The notes below the pieces were generated by a model. It saw nothing but the letters and a program-made list of their open reading frames with translations, was not told the DNA's origin and did not search any database. Positions 1 through 61,666 of a stretch of DNA of 64,000 bases are shown here, piece by piece. Where the stretch lies: the NCBI RefSeq assembly GCF_001677475.2, contig NZ_CP015229.1. One strand, written 5' to 3'. Source of the DNA: Escherichia coli. GTDB lineage: Bacteria > Pseudomonadota > Gammaproteobacteria > Enterobacterales > Enterobacteriaceae. The position numbers and the translations under genes were made by a program. Position 1 is the stretch's first letter. Every line of letters starts with the position of its first letter.

Positions 1-766
1 CAATGGTGCGCCCGCTGACTTTGGTCATTGCCGTACCAAATGGCTGGAAATCATTATTTTTGGTTTGGTCGACCAGAATGTTGCGATCGGCAAGGAACAG
101 AATGCGTTTTTTATTTTTTGATTTCCACAGGCGCCAGATGATCTGGAATGCGGTATAGGTTTTCCCTGTTCCGGTCGCCATTACCAGCAGAACACGGTTT
201 TGCCCGTTGGAGACGGCTTCTATGGTTTTGTTGATTGCCTGAAGCTGGTAATAACGTGGCGATTTACCGCTGCCATCGTCGTAATAGTCCTGAGTAATCA
301 CCGGAAGCTGAGCTTGTGTGTATCCTTTCCAGAGGCAGAATTTTTGCCAGAGTTCAGCGGGGGAGGGGAAGTCATCCAGCGTTATTTGCTTTTCAAGGCA
401 TTCACCTTCGGCTGCGGTAGCATCGCGGAAGATAAAGCCATCACCGTTGGTGGCAAAAACAAAAGGAACGTCCAGCAGGCGCGCGTATTCAATGCCCTGT
501 TGCATCCCTTTGCCAATTTCATGTTTGTTGGCTTTTGCTTCAATCACGGCTAAGGGAATGCCTGGTTTGTGATACAGCACGATGTCAGCAGATTTTACCG
601 TTCTGCGTGCCGCAACTTTACCACGTACGATGACTTTACCGTCCCGGAGTTTGACCTCCTGTCTGATTTGCGTTGTGTTGTCCCAGCCTGCATTGAGAAT
701 GGCTGGCATAACGCATTTGGTAATGATGTCTGCTTCCGTCAGGTTACTTAGGTTCAGTTCCGCCAT
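1..766 (-). CDS. hsdR: Type I restriction enzyme R subunit-like protein, N-terminal ~255 aa; gene continues beyond window start
   Basis: Own reverse-strand translation from ATG (complement 764-766) gives [18 protein letters not shown]... open to position 1; nuclease-like D..IEAK motif and helicase motif [15 protein letters not shown]; N-terminus differs from EcoKI HsdR as I recall it. Confidence 0.6.
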
Positions 767-3492: not shown

Positions 3493-5643
3493 TTAGTGGT
3501 GCGAAGAGATCTTCACGCCGCCTTCCGGGATTGGAACGTACGGCGTTTCTTTGTCAGTACGTTTGTCGCTGTTACGCACCTTCAGCCAGGTTTTGAAACC
3601 GTAGAAGATGATGCTGTACACCACAATCAGGAACAGAATACTCAGGCCTGCGTTGGTGTAGTTGTTCACAACGATGTGGTTCATGTTGGCAATCTGCTGC
3701 GCCGTCAGGTCAGTACCGTTAGCAATCTTCTCTTTGTACTGGCTTGCCATGTAGAAGAAGCCTTCCATCTGCGGGTTGGTGCTGAACAGTTTCAGACCCA
3801 GCGCCCAGGTGGTGCAGATAAGCAGCCATACCGCCGGAACAACAGTTACCCAGATGTATTGGGTGCGCTTCATCTTAATCAGCACAACGGTGCCCAGAAC
3901 CAGCGCTACGGCTGCCAGCATCTGGTTGGAGATACCGAACAGCGGCCACAGGCTCTTAACGCCGCCCAGCGGATCGACCACGCCCTGATACAGCAGGTAG
4001 CCCCACAGACCCACACAGCCCGCTGTACCGATGATACCGGCAACCAGAGAGTCGGTTTTTTTCAGGAACGGGATGAAGTTACCCAGCAGGTCTTGCAGCA
4101 TAAAGCGGCCAGAACGGGTACCGGCATCCAGCGCGGTCAGGATGAACAGGGCTTCGAACAGGATACCGAAGTGATACCAGAAGCCCATGTCAGCCATCGG
4201 CAGCACTTTGTGGAATACATGAGCGATACCTACCGCCAGCGTCGGCGCACCACCTGCACGGTTCAGGACAGAAGGCTCACCAATGTCTTTCGCGGTTTGC
4301 AGGATCTGCTCTGGCGAAATCACGAAGCCCCAGGAGCTGACAGTCGCCGCCGCGTGTGCGGTAACGTCTTTCAGCTGCGCCATGATGATTGGCGCGTTCT
4401 CGCCACCCATTTCATGCAGGTTAGGCATGGTGATGCCGAGGCCAGCAGGCGGGGTGTTCATCGCGAAGTAAAGACCCGGTTCGATGATGGACGCAGCAAC
4501 CAGCGCCATAATCGCCACGAAGGACTCCATCAGCATTGCGCCGTAGCCGATGAAACGCGCATCGGTTTCGTTAGCCAGCAGTTTCGGCGTCGTACCGGAA
4601 GAGATCAGCGCGTGGAAGCCAGATACCGCACCACAGGCGATGGTGATGAACAGGAACGGGAACAGAGCGCCTTTCCACAGCGGGCCAGTACCATCAATGT
4701 ACTGAGTCATCGCAGGCATTTTCAGTTCCGGGTTCAGCACCACGATACCCAGCGCCAGGCCGACGATAACGCCGATTTTCAGGAAGGTTGCCAGATAGTC
4801 GCGCGGTGCGAGGATCAGCCACACCGGCAGCAGTGCGGAAACAAACGCATAGCCAATCAGCGCGAAGGTAATGGTGGTGTCTTTAAAGGTCAGTGCCGGA
4901 CCCCAGTACGGATCGTGAGCAATCACGCCACCGAAGTAGATAGAGGCAACCAGCAGCACGATACCAATGACAGAGACTTCACCTACACGCCCCGGACGAA
5001 TAAAGCGCATGTAGATACCCATAAACAGCGCAATCGGTACGGTTGAGCAAACGGTGAAGACACCCCACGGACTTTCGGCCAGGGCTTTAACCACAATCAG
5101 CGCCAGGACGGCAAGGATGATGATCATGATTAAGAAACAGCCAAACAGCGCGATAGTCCCCGGTACTGGTCCCATCTCTTCTTTGATCATCTCACCGAGA
5201 GATGCGCCGTTACGGCGAGAGGAGATAAACAGCACCATAAAGTCCTGTACCGCACCGGCCAGCACTACCCCCGCCAGCAGCCACAGCGTGCCAGGCAGGT
5301 AGCCCATCTGCGCGGCGAGCACCGGACCAACCAGCGGACCGGCACCGGCGATAGCGGCGAAGTGGTGACCAAACAACACGTAACGGTTGGTCGGAACGTA
5401 GTTCAGACCGTCGTTGTTAATAACCGCAGGCGTCGCGCGCGTGGGGTCGAGTTTCATCACCTTCTGGGCGATGTACAGACTGTAGTAGCGATACGCCACC
5501 AGATACACCGACACAGAGGCGACCACGATCCACAGGGCGCTGACGTGCTCCCCCCGACGTAATGCAACTACCGCGAGGCAGAATGCACCGATGATTCCGA
5601 GAATCACCCAGGGTATGTGCTTGAATAGTTTTTTCGTATCCAT
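3493..5643 (-). CDS. btsT: Pyruvate/proton symporter BtsT (CstA family; YjiY)
   Basis: ORF track 3493..5658, 721 aa polytopic protein; start likely at [16 protein letters not shown]. Confidence 0.9.
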
Positions 5644-35427: not shown

Positions 35428-36663
35428 ATGGCGCTGTCTGATGCGTGGTTGCGTTCAGTCGTTGGAAAGGAACGTGATAAGGTTTTGGTTAAATCCGATC
35501 GTGATGGTCTGTCTGTCAGAGTATCACCGAAAGGTCGCGTAGTGTTCCAATATCGTTATCAATGGGCAGGGAAAGGTGAGCGCCTTGATATCGGAACTTA
35601 CCCGGCAACTGGATTAAAAGAGGCCAGAGAAGAAGTTATCCGTCTCCGTGGTGAACTCGAGTCAAACCGCAATCCACGATTAGTCAAGCAGGCTGAAAAA
35701 CGAAAAGCTACTGAAGCCATGACGGTAGAGTCTGTGATCCGTGCCTGGTATGAAGCATATTGTGTAAAAAATAAAAAAGGTTCTGAACAGATACTCCGCT
35801 CGTTTGAGCTGCACCTGTTCTCTAAAATCGGGAATATCCCTCACGATGCAGCTACATTGCATGATTGGTTAGAAGTCCTGGAGCCTCTTAGCACCAAGAC
35901 TCCAGCAATAGTAGACCGATTGCTAATTAACGCAAAGCAGGCTCATGTCTGGGCGTATAAGAGAAAGCTCATTGAAACTCGCCCACTGTCGGATATCACG
36001 GGTAAAGATATGGATATCCGTAAAGGTCAGAAAAAACGGTTTCTGACACATGATGAAATTAACATCCTTTATGCTGCGATCGATGGTTCTCGAATGGTTC
36101 CTAAATACCGAGCCTTCATTAAACTATTGCTGCATTTTGGTTGCCGTAGTTCAGAGCTAATTACTGCTAGGGTGGATGATTTTGATTTCATAAATAAGGT
36201 ATGGACTGTACCACCAGAACGACATAAGACTGGGGACATAACAGGCGAACCGCTAAAGCGGCCCATTATTGAACCGGTTGAAGAGCTTATAAAATACGTT
36301 ATCTCTATGAACAACGGTTCCGATATGCTTTTTACTAAGGAAGGAAGCAGGGAGCCAGTTGGTCGGACATCATTGCAGTCGCTGCCTTACAATTTAATGC
36401 AGTTCGCATGGCGACGTTTGGGGTATCAATTTCCTCATTGGTCTCTTCATGATTTGAGACGAACAGCACGAACAAACTTTTCTGATCTTACTGCTCCTCA
36501 TATTGCTGAAATAATGCTTGGTCATAAACTGCCAGGTGTATGGCAAGTTTATGATAAGAGCGATTATCTAGAAGAACAGCGTAAAGCTTACTGGGCATGG
36601 TGGGAGAGGGTTGAATCGATCGTTACTTGTACTGACTTAATCTCCAACGGACAGTTTGCGTAG
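35428..36663 (+). CDS. int: Phage tyrosine integrase
   Basis: ORF track 411 aa; C-terminal catalytic region with HDLRRTARTN and LGH..VYD motifs; RBS AAGGTGAG. Confidence 0.85.
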   Translation: MALSDAWLRSVVGKERDKVLVKSDRDGLSVRVSPKGRVVFQYRYQWAGKGERLDIGTYPATGLKEAREEVIRLRGELESNRNPRLVKQAEKRKATEAMTVESVIRAWYEAYCVKNKKGSEQILRSFELHLFSKIGNIPHDAATLHDWLEVLEPLSTKTPAIVDRLLINAKQAHVWAYKRKLIETRPLSDITGKDMDIRKGQKKRFLTHDEINILYAAIDGSRMVPKYRAFIKLLLHFGCRSSELITARVDDFDFINKVWTVPPERHKTGDITGEPLKRPIIEPVEELIKYVISMNNGSDMLFTKEGSREPVGRTSLQSLPYNLMQFAWRRLGYQFPHWSLHDLRRTARTNFSDLTAPHIAEIMLGHKLPGVWQVYDKSDYLEEQRKAYWAWWERVESIVTCTDLISNGQFA

Positions 36664-47204: not shown

Positions 47205-48200
47205 GTGACCGTGAGAGCACTACTGACCCCTGAAATTGCCCCGCGTATGGGGATCGTATTGTTCAGGCCAGGTTCAGAGCTGATGCCCCTGTTTATGCAG
47301 GGGCGTGTCCTGCTGGAGCCTGAGCCGGAACGTTATTCATCTTTCGCCAGTGGTGCCGTTCCGGCGGCATCACAACCGCTGGCGGATGATCCTGCCGTTC
47401 GGGCCGTGTTCCGCAATGAGGCAGTGATCCGTCGTGCTGGTGGCGTGGAATGTCTTGAAAGCTGGTTACTTCGTGAAAAGGGCTGTCAGTGGCCTCATTC
47501 CGACTGGCACAGCGAGAACATGACCACAATGCGACACGCGCCGGGCGCAATCCGTCTGTGTTGGCACTGCGATAACCAGTTGCGTGATCAGTTCACGGAA
47601 CGGCTGGAATCAATGGCAACGGATAACTGTGCCCGCTGGGTGTTATCTGTCGTGCGTCGGGATCTCGGTTTTGATGACAGTCACGTAGTGACAATGCCGG
47701 AACTGTGCTGGTGGCTGGTTCGTAATGACCTGGCGGATGCCTTACCGGAAAGTGCAGCCCGTAAGGCACTGAGATTACCGAAGCCTGTTGTGCCGTCTGT
47801 CACCCGGGAAAGTGACCTTGTGCCTTCGGTTCCTGCCACCAGCATCATCCAGGATAAAGCGAAAAAGGTGCTGGCGCTGAAAGTGGATCCGGAGTCGCCG
47901 GAGTCTTTTATGTTACGCCCAAAACGTCGCCGCTGGGTTAATGAAAAGTACACGCGCTGGGTTAAGACACAGCCGTGTGCATGTTGTGGAAAGCCCGCTG
48001 ATGATCCCCACCACCTGATAGGCCACGGTCAGGGTGGAATGGGTACAAAAGCGCATGACCTTTTTGTGTTGCCTTTGTGCAGAAAGCATCACGACGAGCT
48101 GCATGCGAATACCGTGGCATTTGAAGAGAATTATGGCTCCCAGCTGGAGCTGATATTTCGTTTTATCGATCGTGCGCTGGCAATAGGCGTACTGGCGTAA
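47205..48200 (+). CDS. DUF968-like prophage protein with C-terminal HNH-like zinc finger
   Basis: ORF track 331 aa; CACCGKPADDPHHLIGHGQGG...LCRKHHDELH; resembles YdfU-type proteins found next to Q. Confidence 0.55.
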   Translation: MTVRALLTPEIAPRMGIVLFRPGSELMPLFMQGRVLLEPEPERYSSFASGAVPAASQPLADDPAVRAVFRNEAVIRRAGGVECLESWLLREKGCQWPHSDWHSENMTTMRHAPGAIRLCWHCDNQLRDQFTERLESMATDNCARWVLSVVRRDLGFDDSHVVTMPELCWWLVRNDLADALPESAARKALRLPKPVVPSVTRESDLVPSVPATSIIQDKAKKVLALKVDPESPESFMLRPKRRRWVNEKYTRWVKTQPCACCGKPADDPHHLIGHGQGGMGTKAHDLFVLPLCRKHHDELHANTVAFEENYGSQLELIFRFIDRALAIGVLA

Positions 48201-48213
48201 GTGGAGAACGAGC

Positions 48214-48966
48214 ATGAACCTTGAAGCTTTACCAAAATATTACTCCCCAAAATCGCCAAAATTGAGTGATGACGCACCGGCGACAGGCTCGGGTGGTTTA
48301 ACAATAACAGATGTGATGGCTGCGCAGGGGATGGTGCAGTCGAAAGCTCCGCTTGGTTTTGCCTTATTCCTGGCAAAAGTTGGTGTTCAGGATCCTCAGT
48401 TTGCGATTGAAGGTCTGCTCAATTACGCGATGGCAATGGATAATCCGACATTGAACAAATTGAGTGAAGAAATCCGGTTACAGATCATCCCTTACCTTGT
48501 GAATTTTGCCTTTGCTGATTATTCCAGGTCTGCGGCAAGTAAGGCTCGCTGTGAGTATTGTGCTGGTACTGGATTTCATAATGTATTGCGCGAAGTGGTG
48601 AAACACTCCAGAAGCGGGGAATCTGTTATCAAGGAAGAGTGGGTGAAGGAACTATGTCAGCATTGCCATGGTAAGGGAGAAGTCAGCACAGCGTGCAGAG
48701 GGTGTAAGGGGAAAGGTATTGTCCTGGATGAAAAAAGAACCCGGCTTCATAGCACGCCTGTTTATAAGGTTTGTGGGCGTTGCAATGGAAACCGGTTTAG
48801 TCGTTTACCAACGACACTGGCGCGGTGTCATGTCCAGAAGCTGGTACCAGACCTGACGGATTATCAGTGGTACAAAGGATATGCAGATGTCATTGATAAA
48901 CTGGTTACAAAGTGCTGGCAGGAAGAAGCATATGCTGAGGTGCAATTAAGAAAAGTGACGAGATAA
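48214..48966 (+). CDS. Q: Late-gene antitermination protein Q (phage 82/Qin QuuQ type)
   Basis: ORF track 250 aa; zinc-finger repeats CEYCAGTG, CQHCHGKG, CRGCKGKG; immediately upstream of lysis module. Confidence 0.75.
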   Translation: MNLEALPKYYSPKSPKLSDDAPATGSGGLTITDVMAAQGMVQSKAPLGFALFLAKVGVQDPQFAIEGLLNYAMAMDNPTLNKLSEEIRLQIIPYLVNFAFADYSRSAASKARCEYCAGTGFHNVLREVVKHSRSGESVIKEEWVKELCQHCHGKGEVSTACRGCKGKGIVLDEKRTRLHSTPVYKVCGRCNGNRFSRLPTTLARCHVQKLVPDLTDYQWYKGYADVIDKLVTKCWQEEAYAEVQLRKVTR

Positions 48967-54683: not shown

Positions 54684-55045
54684 ATTAATATTAAATCGGA
54701 TTATTTTTAGCGCTGAATGTGAAATTTAAATAAAAAGGACTCTTCCATGAGTCAAAATCCTTGAAATCTTAAGGGTAAGATAAAAGGTCATTAGACAGAA
54801 TGACACGTTTTATTAATAAATAAAGCTATTGTTTCATTCGTGTGTTTTTCTTTACAAAAGTAATCCTTGCTATGGTTGGTTAATCATGCGTTAATGGTGT
54901 TCTGGTTTGTTACAAAATTATCTGAAGCAGTCATTGTTATAATTTTATTATTTGTACCTCTTGAGATTTCCTTGTTGGTTTTTCTCTCTGATATTTTTTT
55001 CGGACCATTCTGCCCAAGGGCTAACTTCTTCAAAAGGTAATAATG

Positions 55046-55258
55046 ATGTCTAACAAAATGACTGGTTTAGTGAAATGGTTTAACCCTGAAAAAGGTTTTG
55101 GTTTCATCACGCCGAAAGATGGTAGCAAAGATGTGTTTGTCCATTTCTCAGCTATTCAGAGCAACGATTTCAAAACGTTAACTGAGAATCAGGAAGTCGA
55201 ATTTGGTATTGAGAACGGACCTAAAGGCCCCGCGGCTGTTCATGTTGTGGCACTTTGA
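55046..55258 (+). CDS. cspI: Cold-shock protein, CspI-like
   Basis: ORF track 55043..55258; [45 protein letters not shown]. Confidence 0.85.
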
Positions 55259-55457
55259 GGTAGAAAATATTACAAACCATATTCACTTTAGATGCCCGTG
55301 TTGCCATGGTTCTCAGTATAGAACATCATCTTTTGATGTTTCTGACAGGAATCCTTTCGGGGCAAAATGTATCTTTTGTAAATCAATGATGATTACATTT
55401 GATAATATTTCACAATACTTAAATGTTAGCCGTCTGTCGTTAGATTTAAGAAAGTGA
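55242..55457 (+). CDS. Hypothetical small zinc-ribbon protein overlapping cspI 3' end
   Basis: ORF track 55203..55457; internal Met gives [26 protein letters not shown]...CIFCKS. Confidence 0.3.
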
Positions 55458-55463
55458 AAATGA

Positions 55464-55486
55464 AGGCTCCTTCGGGAGCTTTTTTG
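55464..55486 (+). terminator. Intrinsic terminator
   Basis: aggctcc-ttcg-ggagctt then TTTTT. Confidence 0.7.
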
Positions 55487-55529
55487 CTTAGTGTCTAGTC
55501 GATGGATACTCACATATTACGGTAACATT

Positions 55530-55760
55530 ATGAAAAAAATAATAGTTTTTTTTAACTCTGAACCAGCAATGGTAGTGCCAGTGATGACCGGAGTTAACAC
55601 CATCATGCGTGAATATCCAAATGGCGAAACAACACACCTCACTGTAATGGCTGCAGGGTTTCCATCTCTGACCGGAGATCATAAAGTCATTTATGTAGCA
55701 GCGGATCGACATGTAACTTCAGAAGAAATTCTGGAAGCAGCAATGAGACTCTTGAATTGA
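55530..55760 (+). CDS. Hypothetical small protein (76 aa)
   Basis: ORF track 55491..55760 (GTG); first ATG gives MKKIIVFFNSEPAMVVPVMTGVNT...; weak RBS. Confidence 0.3.
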   Translation: MKKIIVFFNSEPAMVVPVMTGVNTIMREYPNGETTHLTVMAAGFPSLTGDHKVIYVAADRHVTSEEILEAAMRLLN

Positions 55761-55932
55761 TTTGATTCTAATGCATTGATAATAAATGATAATCATCTTT
55801 ATCTGTTTGTGTGAAATTTAGACCGTCGTATGTTGATTATTGCGATGTTTCATCTTATCTTTTATACGTTTGCTCCATATAATTGACACTACTGTGTACC
55901 AGGAAAGTCATAACAGACTAAAAGAGGAAATG

Positions 55933-56106
55933 ATGAACATTGAAGAGTTAAAAACAAAAACAGAAGCAGATATTTCTGAATATATAACAAAAAAAATCAT
56001 TGAGCTTAAGAAAAAGACCGGGAAAGAAGTTACCAGTATCCAGTTTACTGCACGGGAAAAAATGACTGGTCTTGAAAGCTATGATATCAAGATTGATTTA
56101 ATCTAG
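55933..56106 (+). CDS. gnsB: GnsA/GnsB-family protein
   Basis: ORF track 55840..56106; ATG with AAAGAGG RBS gives MNIEELKTKTEADISEYITKKIIELKKKTGKEVTSIQFTAREKMTGLESYDIKIDLI. Confidence 0.75.
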   Translation: MNIEELKTKTEADISEYITKKIIELKKKTGKEVTSIQFTAREKMTGLESYDIKIDLI

Positions 56107-56401
56107 TCTGTTTATAGTATTAGCATCAATTTCTTGTCAGATGCTATTCAACAATACAATTTACCCATAAACCTCGTTTTTACGGGGTTTTGTTATATTT
56201 AAACATTACCGAATAGATATAAATCTCGATAGTCGGTGGTATTGGTTGTGTGACAATACCTAGTCTTTTCGGTATGCCTGGAGAGAATACAAACGACAGA
56301 TTATGTAAGGGAAACGCGCTGAAACTTTCACACTTTCATGCTGAGTGATTTGACGTTATATTTTTAGCCGCAAGTGAAGAGCAAACGCATGGAGCGACAA
56401 A

Positions 56402-56608
56402 ATGCATAAAGATCAATACACTGATGACTCATCCCTGGATCAGGTCCGTGTAAAAACTATGCTCACTAGCACCATTTCTATGAGTTATCCGGATGTTGTA
56501 ATTGCATGTATAGAACATCAAGTGTCTCTGGAAGCATTCAGGGCAATTGAGGCAGCGTTGGTGAAGCACGATAAGAATTCGAAGGATTATTCCCTGGTGG
56601 TTGACTGA
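56402..56608 (+). CDS. Hypothetical small protein (68 aa)
   Basis: ORF track; ATG with GGAG RBS. Confidence 0.35.
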
Positions 56609-56858
56609 TCACCATAACTGCTAACCATTCAAACTATTTCACCTGTGACAGAGTCAATATCGCATTCTGTCACTGTCAGGCTAATACAGAACTACAATTC
56701 AACTACTGCAATGCCTCGTAATTAGGTGAATTTACAATATCGTCCTGTTCGGATGCCAACTGCATTTCTGAGGATAAGGCGTTTATGACTCACATATTTG
56801 TCCCACACGCTCGCCAGTCCTGTGCGGGGTGGGAGGGGAGGTAAAGAAACCGGGATGT

Positions 56859-57053
56859 TCATCCATCATCACTTTGGATTGATGTATATGCTCTCTTTTC
56901 TGACGTTAGTCTCCGACGGCAGGCTTCAATGACCCAGGCTGAGAAATTCCCAGACCCTTTTTGCTCAAGAGCGATGTTAATTTGTTCAATCATTTGGTTA
57001 GGAAAGCGGATGTTGCGGGTTGTTGTTCTGCAGGTTCTGTTCTTCGTTGACAT
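56859..57053 (-). CDS. Small basic ribbon-helix-helix-like protein next to cos
   Basis: ORF track 64 aa, MSTKNRTCRTTTRNIRFPNQMIEQINIALEQKGSGNFSAWVIEACRRRL; matches my recollection of the small ORF adjacent to cos in lambda. Confidence 0.55.
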   Translation of the reverse strand: MSTKNRTCRTTTRNIRFPNQMIEQINIALEQKGSGNFSAWVIEACRRRLTSEKRAYTSIQSDDG

Positions 57054-57252
57054 GAGGTTGCCCCGTATTCAGTGTCGCTGATTTGTATTGTCTGAAGTTG
57101 TTTTTACGTTAAGTTGATGCAGATCAATTAATACGATACCTGCGTCATAATTGATTATTTGACGTGGTTTGATGGCGTAGATGCACGTTGTGACATGTAG
57201 ATGATAATTATTATCATTTTGCGGGTCCTTTCCGGCGATCCGACAGGTTACG

Positions 57253-57264
57253 GGGCGGCGACCT
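57253..57264 (+). other. cosN cohesive-end site, lambda type (GGGCGGCGACCT); cosB expected just downstream
   Basis: Exact 12-nt lambda cohesive-end sequence, flanked by ...caggttacg and cgcggtttttcgctatttatga as at lambda genome ends; ~220 bp upstream of the small terminase gene. Confidence 0.8.
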
Positions 57265-57480
57265 CGCGGTTTTTCGCTATTTATGAGATTTTTTGAGGGG
57301 GTGGTTGTTGTTTAATTGTTTGGTATATCTAATTGATAAGTAAGGTGAAAATAAAATAAATACAACAACCTTACGATGTGCTTTGATGTCATTAATGTGA
57401 AAAAATTAAATGATATCAAATGGTTTTGTAAAAACACATGGTTGTTGTATCGCTTTTTATCGATGACTTATGGAGAGGAG

Positions 57481-57987
57481 ATGGCCTTTTTATTGAATAA
57501 AAGTGATATGGCCTCCTCCATCGGTATCTCTGTTCAGGCATTTGATAAATGGGGCGTTCCTCCTGTCGAGCGTCGGGGGAGGGAAGTTTTTTATGACGTT
57601 AAAACTGTACTGGAGATAGATCGCGAGCGGCGACAACACAATCATAGAACACCTGATGACGGGGGCGATCTGGAGGAAAGGCTGCTTCGGGCCAGAGCTG
57701 AACTGACAGAAGAACAGGCCGTAGCTCAAAAACTTAAAAATCAGGTAACCGAAGGTAAGCTCATCGATTCAGACTTCTGCGTTTTCGCCCTCAGCAAGCT
57801 GGCGATGGCATTGTCCAGTACGCTTGATTCTATTCCGTTATCCATGCAGCGACAGTTCCCGGATTTAACGCCACGTCATCTTGACCATCTGAAAACCCTT
57901 ATTGCGAAGGGCGCAAATCAGTGTGCGCGGGCAGGGGATAAATTACCGGATTTGCTGGATGAATATATCAGAGCAACAACTGAATAA
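57481..57987 (+). CDS. nu1: Terminase small subunit (Nu1-like)
   Basis: ORF track 57376..57987; ATG with GGAGAGGAG RBS; VFYDVKTVLE...FCVFALSKLAMALSSTLDSIPLSMQRQFPDLTPRHLDHLK close to lambda Nu1. Confidence 0.85.
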   Translation: MAFLLNKSDMASSIGISVQAFDKWGVPPVERRGREVFYDVKTVLEIDRERRQHNHRTPDDGGDLEERLLRARAELTEEQAVAQKLKNQVTEGKLIDSDFCVFALSKLAMALSSTLDSIPLSMQRQFPDLTPRHLDHLKTLIAKGANQCARAGDKLPDLLDEYIRATTE

Positions 57988-59887
57988 TCTGATGGCTGCC
58001 GTTTCGGTTGCGCTGCAGCCTCTGGTCAGGGTTGTACCGATGACGGCAGTTGAATGGGCTGACCAGTATTATTATCTGCCGAAAGAATCCTCATACGGTG
58101 ACGGCGAATGGAAAACGCTGCCGTTCCAGATCGCCATCATGAACAGTATGGGGAATGATCAGATCCGCACTGTTAATCTGATTAAATCTGCCCGTGTTGG
58201 CTATACAAAGATGTTGCTGGGGGTGGTCGGGTATTTTATTGAGCATAAATCCCGAAACAGTCTGCTTTTTCAGCCCACGGATTCTGCCGCTGAAGATTTT
58301 ATGAAGTCTCACGTGGAGACGACGATTAGGGACGTGCCATGCCTGAAAGACCTTTCCCCATGGCTGGGTCGTAAACATCGTGATAATACCCTCACGCTGA
58401 AACGCTTTTCATCGGGCGTCGGTTTCTGGTGCCTGGGCGGCGCTGCCGCCAAAAACTACCGTGAAAAATCCGTGGATGTGGTCTGCTATGACGAACTTTC
58501 CTCGTTCGAACCGGATGTTGAAAAAGAGGGTTCGCCAACCCTGCTGGGGGATAAACGTATTGAGGGCTCTGTATGGCCAAAATCCATTCGCGGCTCGACG
58601 CCTAAAATCAAAGGCTCCTGCCAGATCGAAAAAGCCGCTAACGAGTCGGCACATTTCATGCGTTTTTATGTGCCCTGTCCGCACTGTGGGGGGGAGCAGT
58701 ATCTGAAATTTGGCGATGATGCCTCGCCTTTCGGTCTTAAGTGGGAGAAGAATAAGCCAGAAAGTGTTTTCTACCTTTGTGAGCATCATGGCTGTGTGAT
58801 CCATCAGTCTGAGCTTGACCAGAGTAACGGGCGGTGGATCTGTGAAAACACGGGCATGTGGACCCGTGACGGCCTGATGTTTTTCAGCGCCCGGGGTGAT
58901 GAAATTCCGCCGCCGCGCTCCATCACTTTCCATATCTGGACGGCGTACAGTCCGTTCACCACCTGGGTACAGATTGTCTATGACTGGCTGGATGCACTGA
59001 AAGATCCCAACGGCCTGAAAACCTTTGTGAACACCACGCTGGGCGAGACCTACGAAGAGGCCGTGGGCGAAAAACTCGATCACCAGGTACTGATGGATAA
59101 GGTTGTGCGTTACACGGCGGCGGTGCCTGCCCGGGTGGTTTATCTGACGGCCGGCATTGACTCGCAGCGAAACCGTTTTGAGATGTATGTCTGGGGATGG
59201 GCTCCGGGAGAGGAAGCCTTTCTGGTGGATAAAATCATCATTATGGGGCGTCCCGATGAGGAAGAGACGCTGTTACGTGTGGATGCGGCGATCAACAAAA
59301 AATACCGCCATGCAGACGGAACCGAAATGACCATTTCCCGTGTCTGCTGGGACATCGGGGGGATCGATGGCGAAATCGTTTATCAGAGGTCAAAAAAACA
59401 CGGTGTTTTCCGGGTGCTGCCGGTAAAAGGCGCATCTGTCTATGGCAAGCCGGTGATCACCATGCCAAAAACCCGCAATCAGCGGGGCGTGTATCTGTGT
59501 GAAGTGGGGACGGACACCGCAAAAGAAATTCTCTATGCCCGTATGAGAGCCGATCCCACGCCTGCGGATGAAGCCACGTCGTATGCCATCCGTTTTCCTG
59601 ATGATCCGGAGATTTTTTCGCAGACAGAGGCGCAGCAACTGGTGGCGGAAGAGCTTGTGGAGAAGTGGGAAAAAGGAAAGATGCGTCTGCTGTGGGATAA
59701 CAAAAAGCGGCGTAACGAAGCGCTGGACTGCCTGGTGTATGCCTACGCGGCATTACGTGTGTCCGTGCAACGTTGGCAGCTTGATCTGGCTGTACTGGCA
59801 AAATCCCGGGAAGAAGAGACGACCCGGCCAACCCTTAAAGAACTGGCAGCGAAGCTGTCCGGAGGAGTGAATGGTTACAGTCGCTGA
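57959..59887 (+). CDS. A: Terminase large subunit (gpA-like)
   Basis: ORF track 57902..59887; start MNISEQQLNNL; strong similarity to lambda gpA as recalled (AVEWADQYYYLPKESSYGDGEWKTLPFQ, SPFTTWVQIV). Confidence 0.9.
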   Translation: MNISEQQLNNLMAAVSVALQPLVRVVPMTAVEWADQYYYLPKESSYGDGEWKTLPFQIAIMNSMGNDQIRTVNLIKSARVGYTKMLLGVVGYFIEHKSRNSLLFQPTDSAAEDFMKSHVETTIRDVPCLKDLSPWLGRKHRDNTLTLKRFSSGVGFWCLGGAAAKNYREKSVDVVCYDELSSFEPDVEKEGSPTLLGDKRIEGSVWPKSIRGSTPKIKGSCQIEKAANESAHFMRFYVPCPHCGGEQYLKFGDDASPFGLKWEKNKPESVFYLCEHHGCVIHQSELDQSNGRWICENTGMWTRDGLMFFSARGDEIPPPRSITFHIWTAYSPFTTWVQIVYDWLDALKDPNGLKTFVNTTLGETYEEAVGEKLDHQVLMDKVVRYTAAVPARVVYLTAGIDSQRNRFEMYVWGWAPGEEAFLVDKIIIMGRPDEEETLLRVDAAINKKYRHADGTEMTISRVCWDIGGIDGEIVYQRSKKHGVFRVLPVKGASVYGKPVITMPKTRNQRGVYLCEVGTDTAKEILYARMRADPTPADEATSYAIRFPDDPEIFSQTEAQQLVAEELVEKWEKGKMRLLWDNKKRRNEALDCLVYAYAALRVSVQRWQLDLAVLAKSREEETTRPTLKELAAKLSGGVNGYSR

Positions 59888-60077
59888 ACTGCAGGCGCTG
59901 CGTCAGGCGCGCCTTGATTTATTAACCGGTAAACGGGTGGTGTCTGTCCAGAAAGATGGTCGCAGAATTGAATATACGGCGGCTTCTCTGGATGAGCTTA
60001 ACCGGGCGATCAATGATGCGGAGTCGGTACTGGGGACAACCCGACGTCGCCGTCGTCCGCTGGGAGTGAGGTTATGA
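59871..60077 (+). CDS. W: Head-tail joining protein (gpW-like)
   Basis: ORF track 68 aa; LTGKRVVSVQKDGRRIEYTAASLDELNRAINDAE. Confidence 0.8.
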   Translation: MVTVAELQALRQARLDLLTGKRVVSVQKDGRRIEYTAASLDELNRAINDAESVLGTTRRRRRPLGVRL

Positions 60078-61666
60078 AACGAACGCCTGTCCTGATTGAT
60101 GTGAACGGTGTTCCGCTTCGTGAGAGTCTCAGCTACAACGGGGGCGGCGCAGGATTTGGCGGGCAAATGGCGGAGTGGTTGCCACCGGCGCAGAGTGCCG
60201 ATGCGGCCCTGCTGCCCGCGTTGCGTCTGGGGAATGCCCGGGCAGATGATCTGGTGCGCAATAACGGAATAGCGGCTAATGCGGTTGCCCTGCATAAGGA
60301 TCACATTGTCGGGCATATGTTTCTGATCAGCTACCGTCCGAACTGGCGCTGGCTGGGGATGCGGGAGACCGCAGCAAAAAGCTTTGTCGATGAGGTGGAG
60401 GCGTCCTGGTCGGAATACGCCGAAGGGATGTTTGGCGAGATCGACGTGGAAGGAAAACGCACGTTCACGGAATTTATCCGTGAAGGTGTGGGCGTTCATG
60501 CGTTTAACGGCGAAATCTTTGTGCAGCCGGTCTGGGATACGGAAACCACGCAGTTATTCCGTACGCGTTTTAAAGCTGTGAGTCCGAAACGGGTGGACAC
60601 GCCTGGACACGGTATGGGGAACCGTTTTCTGCGGGCCGGTGTGGAGGTCGATCGATATGGCCGTGCCGTCGCGTACCATATCTGTGAGGATGATTTTCCG
60701 TTCTCTGGTAGTGGACGATGGGAACGGATCCCGCGTGAACTTCCCACCGGGCGTCCGGCCATGCTGCATATTTTCGAGCCGGTGGAGGACGGGCAGACCC
60801 GTGGGGCTAATCAGTTTTACAGCGTCATGGAACGGCTGAAGATGCTCGATTCCCTGCAGGCAACACAGCTTCAGTCGGCCATAGTGAAGGCGATGTATGC
60901 AGCGACGATTGAAAGTGAACTTGATACCGAAAAGGCCTTTGAATATATCGCCGGCGCGCCACAGGAGCAGAAGGATAATCCGCTTATTAATATTCTGGAG
61001 AAGTTCTCCAGCTGGTATGACACGAATAACGTGACACTGGGCGGAGTCAAAATTCCGCACCTTTTCCCTGGTGATGATCTGAAACTACAGACTGCGCAGG
61101 ATTCAGACAATGGATTTTCTGCACTTGAACAGGCGCTGCTGCGGTATATCGCCGCCGGTCTTGGCGTTTCCTACGAACAGTTGTCCCGTGATTACTCGAA
61201 GGTCAGTTACTCAAGTGCCCGCGCCTCCGCCAATGAGTCGTGGCGCTATTTTATGGGGCGGCGAAAATTTATTGCGGCCCGGCTGGCCACGCAGATGTTT
61301 TCCTGCTGGCTGGAAGAGGCACTTCTTCGGGGGATTATTCGTCCGCCACGGGCACGTTTTGATTTTTATCAGGCGCGATCAGCCTGGTCACGGGCAGAGT
61401 GGATTGGTGCCGGAAGAATGGCCATTGACGGGCTCAAGGAAGTCCAGGAATCAGTGATGCGCATTGAGGCCGGACTGAGCACGTATGAGAAAGAGCTGGC
61501 GCTAATGGGCGAGGATTATCAGGACATTTTCCGCCAGCAGGTCAGGGAATCTGCAGAGCGGCAAAAAGCCGGACTCTCACGTCCGGTGTGGATATCGCAG
61601 GCGTATCAGCAGCAGATAGCGGAGAGTCGCAGGCCGGAAGAGGAGACAACACCACGTGAGACGTAA
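60074..61666 (+). CDS. B: Portal protein (gpB-like)
   Basis: ORF track 530 aa; position after W and before protease; lambda-like. Confidence 0.85.
   Translation: MKRTPVLIDVNGVPLRESLSYNGGGAGFGGQMAEWLPPAQSADAALLPALRLGNARADDLVRNNGIAANAVALHKDHIVGHMFLISYRPNWRWLGMRETAAKSFVDEVEASWSEYAEGMFGEIDVEGKRTFTEFIREGVGVHAFNGEIFVQPVWDTETTQLFRTRFKAVSPKRVDTPGHGMGNRFLRAGVEVDRYGRAVAYHICEDDFPFSGSGRWERIPRELPTGRPAMLHIFEPVEDGQTRGANQFYSVMERLKMLDSLQATQLQSAIVKAMYAATIESELDTEKAFEYIAGAPQEQKDNPLINILEKFSSWYDTNNVTLGGVKIPHLFPGDDLKLQTAQDSDNGFSALEQALLRYIAAGLGVSYEQLSRDYSKVSYSSARASANESWRYFMGRRKFIAARLATQMFSCWLEEALLRGIIRPPRARFDFYQARSAWSRAEWIGAGRMAIDGLKEVQESVMRIEAGLSTYEKELALMGEDYQDIFRQQVRESAERQKAGLSRPVWISQAYQQQIAESRRPEEETTPRET

Follow-up and report, generated by a model that had tools for sequence, protein, structure and literature searches.

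In the 64-kb window (the whole stretch of E. coli DNA that was analysed), the region between the lysis genes of a lambdoid prophage and its cos site is occupied by a run of small genes, which we called using Pfam profiles together with the RefSeq annotation of an identical genome. The features left of cos are the following.

54889-55304, + strand: cspA-type thermoregulator RNA element spanning the leader and coding sequence of cspI (Rfam RF01766, 111 bits, gathering score 78, E 9e-29)
55046-55258, + strand: cspI cold-shock protein gene (Pfam CSD, E 1.6e-31; RefSeq cspI)
55269-55457, + strand: YmcF/YnfQ-like CxxC protein, 62 aa (Pfam YmcF-like, E 6e-33, residues 1-61; RefSeq ymcF)
55530-55760, + strand: ynfN, 76 aa (RefSeq; PHROG 3425, E 1e-55)
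55933-56106, + strand: gnsB, GnsA/GnsB family, 57 aa (Pfam GnsAB_toxin, E 2e-33; RefSeq gnsB)
56402-56608, + strand: YbcW-like ORF, 68 aa (PHROG 657, E 1e-46)
56859-57053, − strand: basic protein of the YlcI/YnfO family (DUF3950), 64 aa (Pfam DUF3950, E 1.8e-20; NCBIfam YlcI_YnfO_N)

The GnsB-family gene and the small ORFs reported in the initial annotation are real according to Pfam and RefSeq, and gnsB scored 114.5 bits against PF08178 (cut-off 27) over residues 1-54 of its 57. An ORF described there as a zinc ribbon overlapping cspI is a genuine CxxC gene, the YmcF-like one, but the overlap disappears with the annotated ATT start at 55269, which lies 10 nt past the cspI stop codon; the Pfam alignment begins at residue 1 of the product from this start, and an overlap with cspI arises only if reading is taken to begin at 55203, the first in-frame TTG. 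The counterpart of this gene in K-12 Qin, at the same place, is ynfQ. In phage 4W and PhiR63_1, the lambda-group homologue of the YbcW-like ORF carries the annotation YbcW, and similarity to the lambda right end starts just upstream of it, at ~56278. The ymcF-like, ynfN, gnsB, ybcW-like and ylcI/ynfO genes represent the usual Qin/lambda right-end accessory cargo, outside cos function. Furthermore, the mosaic nature previously proposed for the prophage was borne out by the RefSeq gene names, which give CPS-53-type early genes (yfdP/yfdQ/yfdR), a Qin-type antiterminator (ydfT), the lysis genes essQ/rrrQ/rzpQ and a cspB/F/I-ynfN-gnsB cluster followed by a head module in lambda order; the gene order agrees with that of K-12 Qin.

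The basic ORF next to cos had been regarded as ribbon-helix-helix (RHH)-like. Lambda carries an intact copy of this YlcI/YnfO gene that is 95% identical (48115-48303, − strand). In a permissive Pfam scan, no RHH family matched the ORF at E ≤ 10, while a PDB profile search aligned the CopG-family RHH protein 9kkd_A weakly across the whole domain (E = 1), and hhalign gave an alignment to Arc with the expected register, also weakly (probability 1.8%). AF2 monomer models, built from shallow and from more diverse alignments, show two helices after an extended stretch at a pLDDT of 63-64, and a Foldseek search against the PDB gave no match. None of these comparisons, two PDB profile searches among them, reached significance. 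An exhaustive search of representatives returned mostly frameshifted lambda-like copies, and a literature search on YlcI/YnfO function found nothing useful.

The cohesive end itself and its immediate surroundings are arranged as in lambda.

57223-57229, + strand: cosQ (GGGTCCT), the packaging-termination element, spaced as in lambda
57253-57264, + strand: cosN, the 12-nt cohesive-end sequence GGGCGGCGACCT, identical to lambda cosN and aligned with the lambda ends
57265-57299, + strand: cosN-to-R3 spacer (the I2 region in the nomenclature of Feiss), lambda-like to ~57293 and holding the left boundary of the cassette described below

We confirmed the exact lambda cosN with lambda-like flanks that had been noticed initially. 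GGGCGGCGACCT has a single exact match in the window, and the first base of cosQ lies 30 bp to the left of cosN base 1, likewise in lambda and K-12 Qin. Alignment with lambda gave ~90% identity over ~1 kb of the right end, from ~56278 to 57293. Ungapped identity to lambda in 10-bp bins was 60-100%, and mostly 90-100%, over the 200 bp left of cosN; right of cosN it was 80-100% for the first 40 bp and 20-40% beyond. Similarity to lambda, PhiR63_1 and PhiR12 alike ends at 57293, ~41 bp into the lambda left end. Judged from these alignments, the likeness of the cosN flanks to lambda is homology, and chance is excluded.

Beyond this point lies cosB, in which four elements were located.

57300-57315, + strand: R3, the proposed primary TerS binding site, GGTGGTTGTTGTTTAA, with the core GGTTGTTGT at 57303-57311 (positions 51-59 from cosN base 1)
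57326-57338, − strand: I1, an IHF-like core TATCAATTAGATA between R3 and R2, with one mismatch to WATCAANNNNTTR (positions 74-86)
57362-57370, − strand: R2, a putative inverted TerS site whose core GGTTGTTGT repeats that of R3 exactly, in inverted orientation (positions 110-118)
57440-57448, + strand: R1, a putative third TerS site with the core GGTTGTTGT (positions 188-196)

When the 260 bp right of cosN were searched with the lambda R motif CGTTTCCNTTCT, no match was found at up to three mismatches, and the lambda-type sites CGTTTCC(N)TTCT (R3 +, R2 −, R1 +) are absent from this cosB; as a positive control, the search recovered the lambda sites at 53-64 (+), 109-120 (−) and 155-166. The initial annotation had expected lambda-like packaging specificity and had itself named the absence of cosB sites, to be checked against lambda, as telling against it; for sites of the lambda type this absence is what we found, and the expectation is not upheld, the R sites being of N15 type and the TerS domain N15-like. 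The R3 16-mer is identical to bp 48-63 of N15 (GAGGTTGTTGTTTAAT) at 15 of 16 bases with an offset of 1 bp, and the R3 region GTGGTTGTTGTTTAAT at positions 49-64 strongly matches R3-N15, GAGGTTGTTGTT (about bp 48-60).

Exact copies of GGTTGTTGT number four in the 64 kb, all within 430 bp of cosN; the fourth, at 57018, lies within the YlcI/YnfO gene and is present in lambda-type DNA too. Three copies within 200 bp occurred in 0 of 1000 dinucleotide shuffles, and a chance origin of the repeats was ruled out by these shuffle tests together with their conservation. Throughout terS, GGTTGTTGT has no match at ≤ 1 mismatch and a sole 2-mismatch match at the 3′ end of the gene, and rR2 is absent from terS here; the same search recovered the N15 rR2 at 250-258. 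Matches to the IHF core with ≤ 1 mismatch occur about once per 800 bp of the window, so that the core alone is weak evidence; same-strand IHF candidates in lambda lie at positions 74-86 and 79-91, and the TTGATAAGTAA block at 57326-57343 is near-invariant among cos variants (13 of 18 columns invariant). As far as sequence can tell, this cosB is the R3-I1-R2-R1 layout of lambda made with the R3 sequence of N15. By analogy, TerS would also bind R2 and R1, and IHF would bind I1.

Conservation was assessed over 47 distinct cos variants that are 68-100% identical. The three GGTTGTTGT 9-mers were 99.4% conserved against a background of 88.5%, and a random triple reached that level in only 1 of 20,000 draws, a conservation that is partly inherited because the 47 variants are related prophages. 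By site, the R3 core was 98% conserved and 9 of 9 columns of R2 and 8 of 9 of R1 were invariant; the mean column identity of cosQ was 96%, and cosN itself and the R2-R1 spacer varied. Divergence of the neighbouring spacers, and even of cosN, beside near-invariant R sites and IHF core indicates selection. In addition, the same cos class was detected in 245 of 5426 complete E. coli genomes (~4.5%) and in 80 IMG/VR viral contigs, and a full-length match to this TerS was found in none of 50,697 sequenced free-phage records.

The two terminase genes follow directly.

57481-57987, + strand: terS, Nu1 family, 168 aa (Pfam Phage_Nu1)
57959-59887, + strand: terL, gpA family, 642 aa (Pfam GpA_ATPase and GpA_nuclease)

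TerS matched PF07471 (Phage_Nu1) with 74.5 bits (cut-off 30, E 1e-20). An ATG further upstream, at 57376 (203-aa ORF), was considered as the terS start and rejected on the evidence of RefSeq, N15 gp1 and diverged relatives with GTG at the 57481 codon. Codons 1-67 encode an N15-like winged-HTH DNA-binding domain; what follows is PhiR12-like. Near-identity to N15 gp1 extends over residues 1-46, and both proteins have the recognition helix ISVQAFDKW. With PhiR12 Nu1, residues 81-168 share 91% identity, and nucleotide similarity to PhiR12 starts again at 57683. Compared with lambda Nu1, TerS is 39% identical overall and its helix differs from the Nu1-type ASIRTIQNW. TerL is 66% identical to both lambda gpA and N15 gp2 and 95.2% identical to PhiR12_1 gpA; the packaging and head genes can therefore be called lambda-like, as they had been, at the family level but not more closely. 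The comparison with PhiR12 sets the cassette boundaries at 57293 and 57683, and the ~390 bp between them (cosB plus terS codons 1-67) appear to behave as a self-contained, swapped specificity cassette within a PhiR12-like terminase module. The positions of R3 and R2 are fixed across three unrelated R-site sequences.

Among known systems, the closest is the 'Monarch' group of N15-like prophages, reportedly defined by Feiss et al. in 2015 (Virology 482:260). The group is characterized by an R3 strongly matching R3-N15, a TerS helix identical to that of N15 and a complex cosB (PMC4669245). The cos studied here has the same R3 likeness and helix as Monarch in that description, shares the tripartite cosB R3-I1-R2-R1 with R2 inverted and the IHF site flanked by R3 and R2, and has no rR2 in terS, which separates Monarch from N15 proper; set against this, its cosN is exactly that of lambda and the remaining terminase module is PhiR12-like. 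With N15 itself it shares R3 at a nearly equal distance from cosN and the near-identical TerS DNA-binding domain. However, N15 has a simple cosB in which R3 is the single R site and IHF site, R2 and R1 are lacking, with an accessory rR2 inside gene 1; that gene starts at bp 89, whereas terS here starts at bp 229. The N15 cosN differs from that of lambda at bp 9 and 12, and N15 gp1 is only weakly similar to TerS in the C-terminal part (48% overall).

Lambda and K-12 Qin have in common with the locus the cosN, the cosQ and its spacing, ~90% identity through the ~1 kb on the left, where the ybcW-like and ylcI-like ORFs lie, the succession of genes (terS, terL, W, portal and so on) and the R3/I1/R2 geometry (R3 at 53-64 and R2 at 109-120 in lambda, at 51-59 and 110-118 here, on the same strands). 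They differ in the R sites, which are CGTTTCC(N)TTCT rather than GGTTGTTGT, in TerS and its helix and in TerL, and R1 here is 33 bp more distant from cosN than its lambda counterpart. The PhiR12 phages (PV340549-PV340554) are 93.6% identical in nucleotide sequence over the stretch that begins at terS codon 68 and continues past terL, and 87% identical over cosQ, cosN and the spacer, and have R3/R2 slots at 51 (+) and 110 (−). In contrast, the intervening ~390 bp are unrelated, with ATGTCCGG repeats and another DNA-binding domain. A literature search gave no relevant results on where the PhiR phages come from. A cos of this class has been described before, and the remainder of the region holds nothing unusual.

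Packaging specificity in lambda-like phages is determined by cosB together with the DNA-binding domain of TerS and not by cosN; lambda and 21 share an identical cosN without shared specificity (PMC4669245). R3-N15 (bp 48-59) was defined through block mutations, and mutation of the GTTGTT block lowered yield ~100-fold; DNA carrying the simple cosB-N15 was not packaged by lambda or 21 terminase, and lambda DNA can be packaged by an N15-specific terminase (PMC4669245). With high confidence, we interpret the region as the right-arm end of a Qin-like lambdoid prophage, with a hybrid cos whose initiation and recognition portion belongs to the N15/'Monarch' class. The prophage probably does not share the packaging specificity of lambda, because the recognition site and the TerS domain that reads it are both of N15 ('Monarch') type. 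Since the N15-specific terminase accepts lambda cosB, this difference is asymmetric and not absolute: lambda or 21 terminase should not package the DNA of this prophage, and its own terminase may, like the N15-specific enzyme, be able to package lambda DNA. By analogy with lambda, IHF would bend the DNA at I1 and a TerS dimer would dock on R3 and R2; the anchored TerL would nick cosN (top strand at 57253, bottom strand after 57264), and packaging would run rightwards into terS and terL. As cosQ, cosN and ~40 bp beyond are lambda-type, TerL should make the 12-nt cohesive ends of lambda, and termination at a downstream cos should be generic.

A cos of true lambda specificity, at which lambda terminase and that of the prophage were interchangeable, would fit the lambda-like cosQ, cosN and ~40-bp spacer, the ability of N15-specific terminase to package lambda DNA (PMC4669245) and the example of K-12 Qin, where the same left flank goes with a true lambda-type cosB and a Nu1-like NohA. 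Since K-12 Qin proved truly lambda-type, the likeness to Qin excludes cosB, and a Qin-type cos was rejected here. With no lambda R site at up to three mismatches, a TerS that shares 39% of its residues with Nu1 and has a different recognition helix, lambda terminase refusing cosB-N15 DNA and cosN identity being insufficient between lambda and 21 (PMC4669245), we consider lambda specificity very unlikely. Hardly more probable, and still unlikely, is that the cos is a decayed relic whose GGTTGTTGT repeats persist in a cryptic prophage but have ceased to act as a packaging signal. Many E. coli lambdoid prophages are defective, this one contains at least one pseudogene (ydfR), and its full-length TerS is absent from the 50,697 free-phage records. 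However, the annotation gives terS, terL, the W-like gene and the genes for portal, protease, decoration and capsid proteins as intact throughout, the R sites and IHF core remain near-invariant beside diverging spacers and cosN, and the cos class recurs in the 245 genomes and 80 contigs.

The repeats might also serve another role, as YlcI/YnfO operators or late-operon regulatory sites instead of TerS sites, given that a gene ~200 bp to the left, syntenic with cos in lambda, Qin and DLP12, encodes a small, basic and possibly DNA-binding protein, and that the fourth repeat copy lies inside that gene. Yet YlcI/YnfO does not co-vary with the repeats, because it is ~95% identical in lambda and Qin despite an entirely different cosB, whereas the TerS domain does co-vary; the copy at 57018 is found in lambda-type DNA also, and packaging is affected by mutations in N15 R3 (PMC4669245). 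We regard this role as extremely improbable, and favour TerS sites of the N15/'Monarch' class.

Related cos sequences were also found in satellites. The second cos site (cos2) of EcCICFT073-type phage-inducible islands (PICIs) is PhiR12-type in CFT073 and N15/Monarch-type in ~44 other genomes, and in a satellite island the repeat becomes GGTTGGTGT together with a TerS helix VSATAFDKW. A phage 21-type cosB was rejected for the CFT073 cos2, as phage 21 matches the first 51 nt only and the real match is PhiR12. It is possible, although we propose it only tentatively, that cosB and the TerS domain form an exchangeable cassette between crossover patches (cosQ-cosN-spacer and the TerS core) in lambda-like phages and satellites, and that the EcCICFT073-type cos2 is a complete phage-type cos. 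If so, the island would be packaged directly by terminases of the same class, including that of this prophage, without Rpp redirection.

Taken together, the locus offers a clean natural example of specificity exchange among lambdoid phages, with a ~390-bp cassette inside an otherwise 94%-identical terminase module, and its cos class is common in E. coli genomes and unrepresented among the sequenced free phages searched. An exact lambda cosN is no predictor of lambda packaging specificity, and annotation or engineering on the lambda assumption (cosmid or helper systems, transduction predictions) would probably fail.

The gene calls around cos follow the RefSeq annotation of NZ_CP149565, which is identical across the stretch, and family scans were concordant.

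Genes on either side of cos (window coordinates)
cspI leader: cspA-type thermoregulator (Rfam)
55046-55258, plus strand: cspI
55269-55457, plus strand: ymcF-like CxxC protein
55460-55498: ynfR-like ORF of 13 codons after the ymcF/ynfQ-like gene, flagged 'too short' by RefSeq
55530-55760, plus strand: ynfN
55933-56106, plus strand: gnsB
56402-56608, plus strand: YbcW-like ORF, 68 aa
56859-57053, minus strand: YlcI/YnfO DUF3950 protein
57481-57987, plus strand: terS
57959-59887, plus strand: terL

Every gene of the region falls in a named family, and K-12 Qin has a matching order (cspI, ynfQ, ynfR, ynfN, gnsB, ydfO, ynfO, nohA). The initial annotation had placed gnsB and small ORFs right of the lysis genes, and the RefSeq annotation and family scans bear this out. 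Its zinc-ribbon ORF is also present, but the proposed overlap with cspI is not, since it needs an upstream TTG; the annotated start of this ymcF/ynfQ-like CxxC gene is a rare ATT (55269-55271), 10 nt past the end of cspI. The Pfam model covers the ATT-started product from residue 1. The prophage begins with a tyrosine integrase adjoining yjjG (about window 35428-36663) and extends beyond the window end, into the major capsid gene (window about 35400-64000). In addition, ydfR is an annotated pseudogene, and the structural genes inside the window are annotated as intact.

The window contains a single copy of the cosN 12-mer GGGCGGCGACCT (57253-57264), and ~90% identity to the phage lambda right end spans about 56278 to 57293, cosN included, confirming the exact lambda cosN in a lambda-like flank noted initially. 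When the left end was compared ungapped with lambda and Qin, identity was 80-100% over the first 40 bp and 20-60% beyond. The lambda R-site motif CGTTTCCNTTCT was not found right of cosN within three mismatches, while all three sites were recovered in lambda as a control (R3 at 53-64 (+), R2 at 109-120 (−) and R1 at 155-166 (+)). The cosN-to-terS interval holds three exact copies of GGTTGTTGT in the orientation +, −, +, and terS contains no such site at ≤1 mismatch.

Elements of cos (positions counted from the first base of cosN, window 57253)
57223-57229: cosQ GGGTCCT, starting 30 bp left of cosN, a spacing identical in lambda and K-12 Qin
57303-57311, positions 51-59, plus strand: GGTTGTTGT copy, R3 core
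57362-57370, positions 110-118, minus strand: GGTTGTTGT copy, R2 core
57440-57448, positions 188-196, plus strand: GGTTGTTGT copy, R1 core

Exact GGTTGTTGT is present in four copies in the 64 kb window, 4/4 lying <430 bp from cosN, and none of 1000 dinucleotide-preserving shuffles had three copies inside 200 bp; this clustering and the shuffle result rule out a chance origin. The fourth copy (57018) was taken as incidental because its DNA is also present in lambda-type genomes. Furthermore, positions 74-86 of the minus strand hold an IHF-like core with one mismatch, TATCAATTAGATA; the candidates in lambda have the same orientation and occupy 74-86 and 79-91.

We found that window positions 49-64 (GTGGTTGTTGTTTAAT) match bp 48-63 of the N15 left end (GAGGTTGTTGTTTAAT) at 15/16 bases with a 1-bp offset. 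R3-N15 occupies bp 48-59; scrambling its GTTGTT caused a ~100-fold yield loss, and cosB-N15 chromosomes were not packaged by lambda- or 21-specific terminases (Feiss et al., PMC4669245). Over its first 46 residues TerS is almost the same as N15 gp1, and the helix ISVQAFDKW is shared without change; across the whole protein, N15 gp1 is 48% identical and lambda Nu1 39%. Judged by sequence, the window appears to show each feature of the Monarch class of N15-like prophages (N15-type R3 and TerS helix, a tripartite R3-I1-R2-R1 cosB, and no further site of this kind within terS; PMC4669245). Cos sites of this N15/Monarch type have been described before. The lambda-like packaging specificity deduced earlier from cosN and its flanks is therefore not upheld: lambda identity is lost after ~40 bp of the left end, the lambda R motif is missing, and N15-type R cores and TerS helix are found instead.

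An IMG/VR scan with the TerS N-terminal peptide yielded 80 loci and, from these, 47 distinct versions of the 265 bp preceding terS, with 68-100% identity to the window. The three R 9-mers were 99.4% conserved versus an 88.5% background, a figure that is partly inherited as the 47 variants are related; 1 of 20,000 random 9-mer triples from the interval equalled it. The IHF-site block TTGATAAGTAA was nearly invariant, the R2-R1 spacer averaged 78%, and cosN diverged in several variants (e.g. GGGCGGCAGGCG, GGGTCGGTGGAC). A protein-binding footprint would be expected to give such a site-versus-spacer contrast. A second IHF-like core with one mismatch, TATCAAATGGTTT, was observed between R2 and R1 (57414-57426), with 7 of 13 columns invariant in the 47 variants within the poorly conserved spacer. 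The R2-R1 distance, 33 bp above lambda's, might fit a second bend.

Comparison with PhiR12_1 divided the region into three segments.

Segments relative to PhiR12_1
57202-57293: cosQ, cosN and spacer, 87% to PhiR12_1
57294-57682: cosB and terS codons 1-67, no detectable match to PhiR12_1
57683-60300: rest of terS, terL and beyond, 93.6% to PhiR12_1 (TerL 95.2% at the protein level)

The ~390 bp that lack a PhiR12_1 match thus comprise cosB and the TerS winged helix-turn-helix domain. Residues 1-68 make up the DNA-binding domain of lambda gpNu1, a boundary that coincides with the cassette edge in terS. The repeats of PhiR12, ATGTCCGG, are different and lie at 51 (+), 110 (−) and 140 (−), so the R3 and R2 slots are common to R sequences of three unrelated kinds: lambda, N15/Monarch and PhiR12. 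TerL is 66% identical to lambda gpA and likewise 66% to N15 gp2; the description of packaging as lambda-like thus holds for family and gene order but fails for specificity and nearest relatives. K-12 Qin shares the left flank but has a true lambda-type cosB and the Nu1-like NohA, and in PhiR63_1 a left flank matching that of the window at 99.8% is followed by a lambda-type Nu1. Since both link the shared left flank to lambda-type cosB/Nu1, the cosQ-cosN-spacer patch is regarded as a recombination joint.

Of 5426 complete E. coli genomes, 245 contain at least 80% of 57265-57620. The TerS of the window was found at full length in none of 50,697 phage genomes; N15 matched it at 46% and PhiR12 over residues 81-168 only. 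Prophages with N15-type cosB and TerS domain (IMG/VR loci L007, L008, L059, L073 and others) had varied cohesive ends ~230 bp upstream of terS, including GGGCGGCAGGCG, GGGTCAGAGGAC, GGGTCGGTGGAC, GGGTCTGTAGAC and GGGCGTCGACCT. Several cohesive-end sequences beside one N15-type cosB/TerS domain indicate that cosN and cosB classes assort independently.

The YlcI/YnfO gene keeps its place beside cos in lambda, Qin and the window prophage. An intact lambda ORF of 63-64 aa (48115-48303 (−); 3616-3804 in lambda locus L002) shares 95% identity with the DUF3950 ORF of the window. This lambda ORF, ~200 bp from the right end, is absent from the J02459 annotation. Calling the protein 'RHH-like' is no more than a reasonable guess. 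Its pattern K.IRFP…L(I/L)E.I…NFSAWV recalls the Arc/CopG RHH signature, but hhalign placed it on Arc in the signature register with a probability of just 1.8%, and the best whole-domain PDB match, a CopG-family RHH, was not significant (E = 1). AF2 models (pLDDT 63-64) gave an extended stretch leading into two helices, with which a Foldseek search returned no match. That this protein reads cosB seems unlikely, because it is nearly unchanged beside lambda-type and N15-type cosBs. Most database 'homologs' of the ORF are from ENA contigs of ~3.5 kb. Frameshifts are common among them, and some bear the names Staphylococcus or Veillonella. They appear to derive from noisy sequencing of a lambda control DNA fragment, by which the DUF3950 family is inflated and contaminated in public collections.

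The sequence features, geometry and conservation of cos were established here; the role of R3-N15 and the lambda/21/N15 specificity relationships come from the literature (PMC4669245). In the mechanism we propose, IHF would introduce a bend at I1, R3 and R2 would receive a TerS dimer, R1 would play an accessory part, and TerL would be placed to nick cosN, giving lambda-type cohesive ends. Packaging would proceed rightwards, and for termination cosQ, cosN and the spacer would suffice, whatever the cosB class.

Related cos sites were also observed in roxA-phoQ satellite islands (PICI-like) of about 11 kb. In strain 2017C-4173W12 (L086 1459-2290; also L093), a 146-aa Rpp-like gene lies between two convergent cos sites ~780 bp apart. 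The PICI-type site is immediately upstream of this gene; the other, on the opposite strand, is a complete N15/Monarch-type cosQ-cosN-R3-I1 (IHF-like core)-R2-R1 whose likeness to the window stops directly after R1. The full two-cos arrangement was found in 44 complete E. coli genomes (2017C-4173W12 and 43 others). A sister island in O157:H7 NE122 (L087 1459-2176), of a type also found in Nissle (L094), encodes its own full-length TerS of 180 aa; its cosB repeats are GGTTGGTGT and its helix VSATAFDKW, each with small changes from GGTTGTTGT and ISVQAFDKW of the window, so that repeat and TerS reader look as if they change together. The equivalent second cos in CFT073 (EcCICFT073, L095 320-520) has a cosB 97% identical to that of the sequenced PhiR12 phages, with ATGTCCGGTT forward once and AACCGGACAT inverted twice. 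Both cos sites of EcCICFT073 are functional, Rpp-dependent transfer by lambda and phi80 required only cos1, and the authors reported no identifiable phage cosB and offered no explanation of what cos2 does (PMC6092414, PMC6739421). One possible reading is that cos2 directly matches helpers of other classes.
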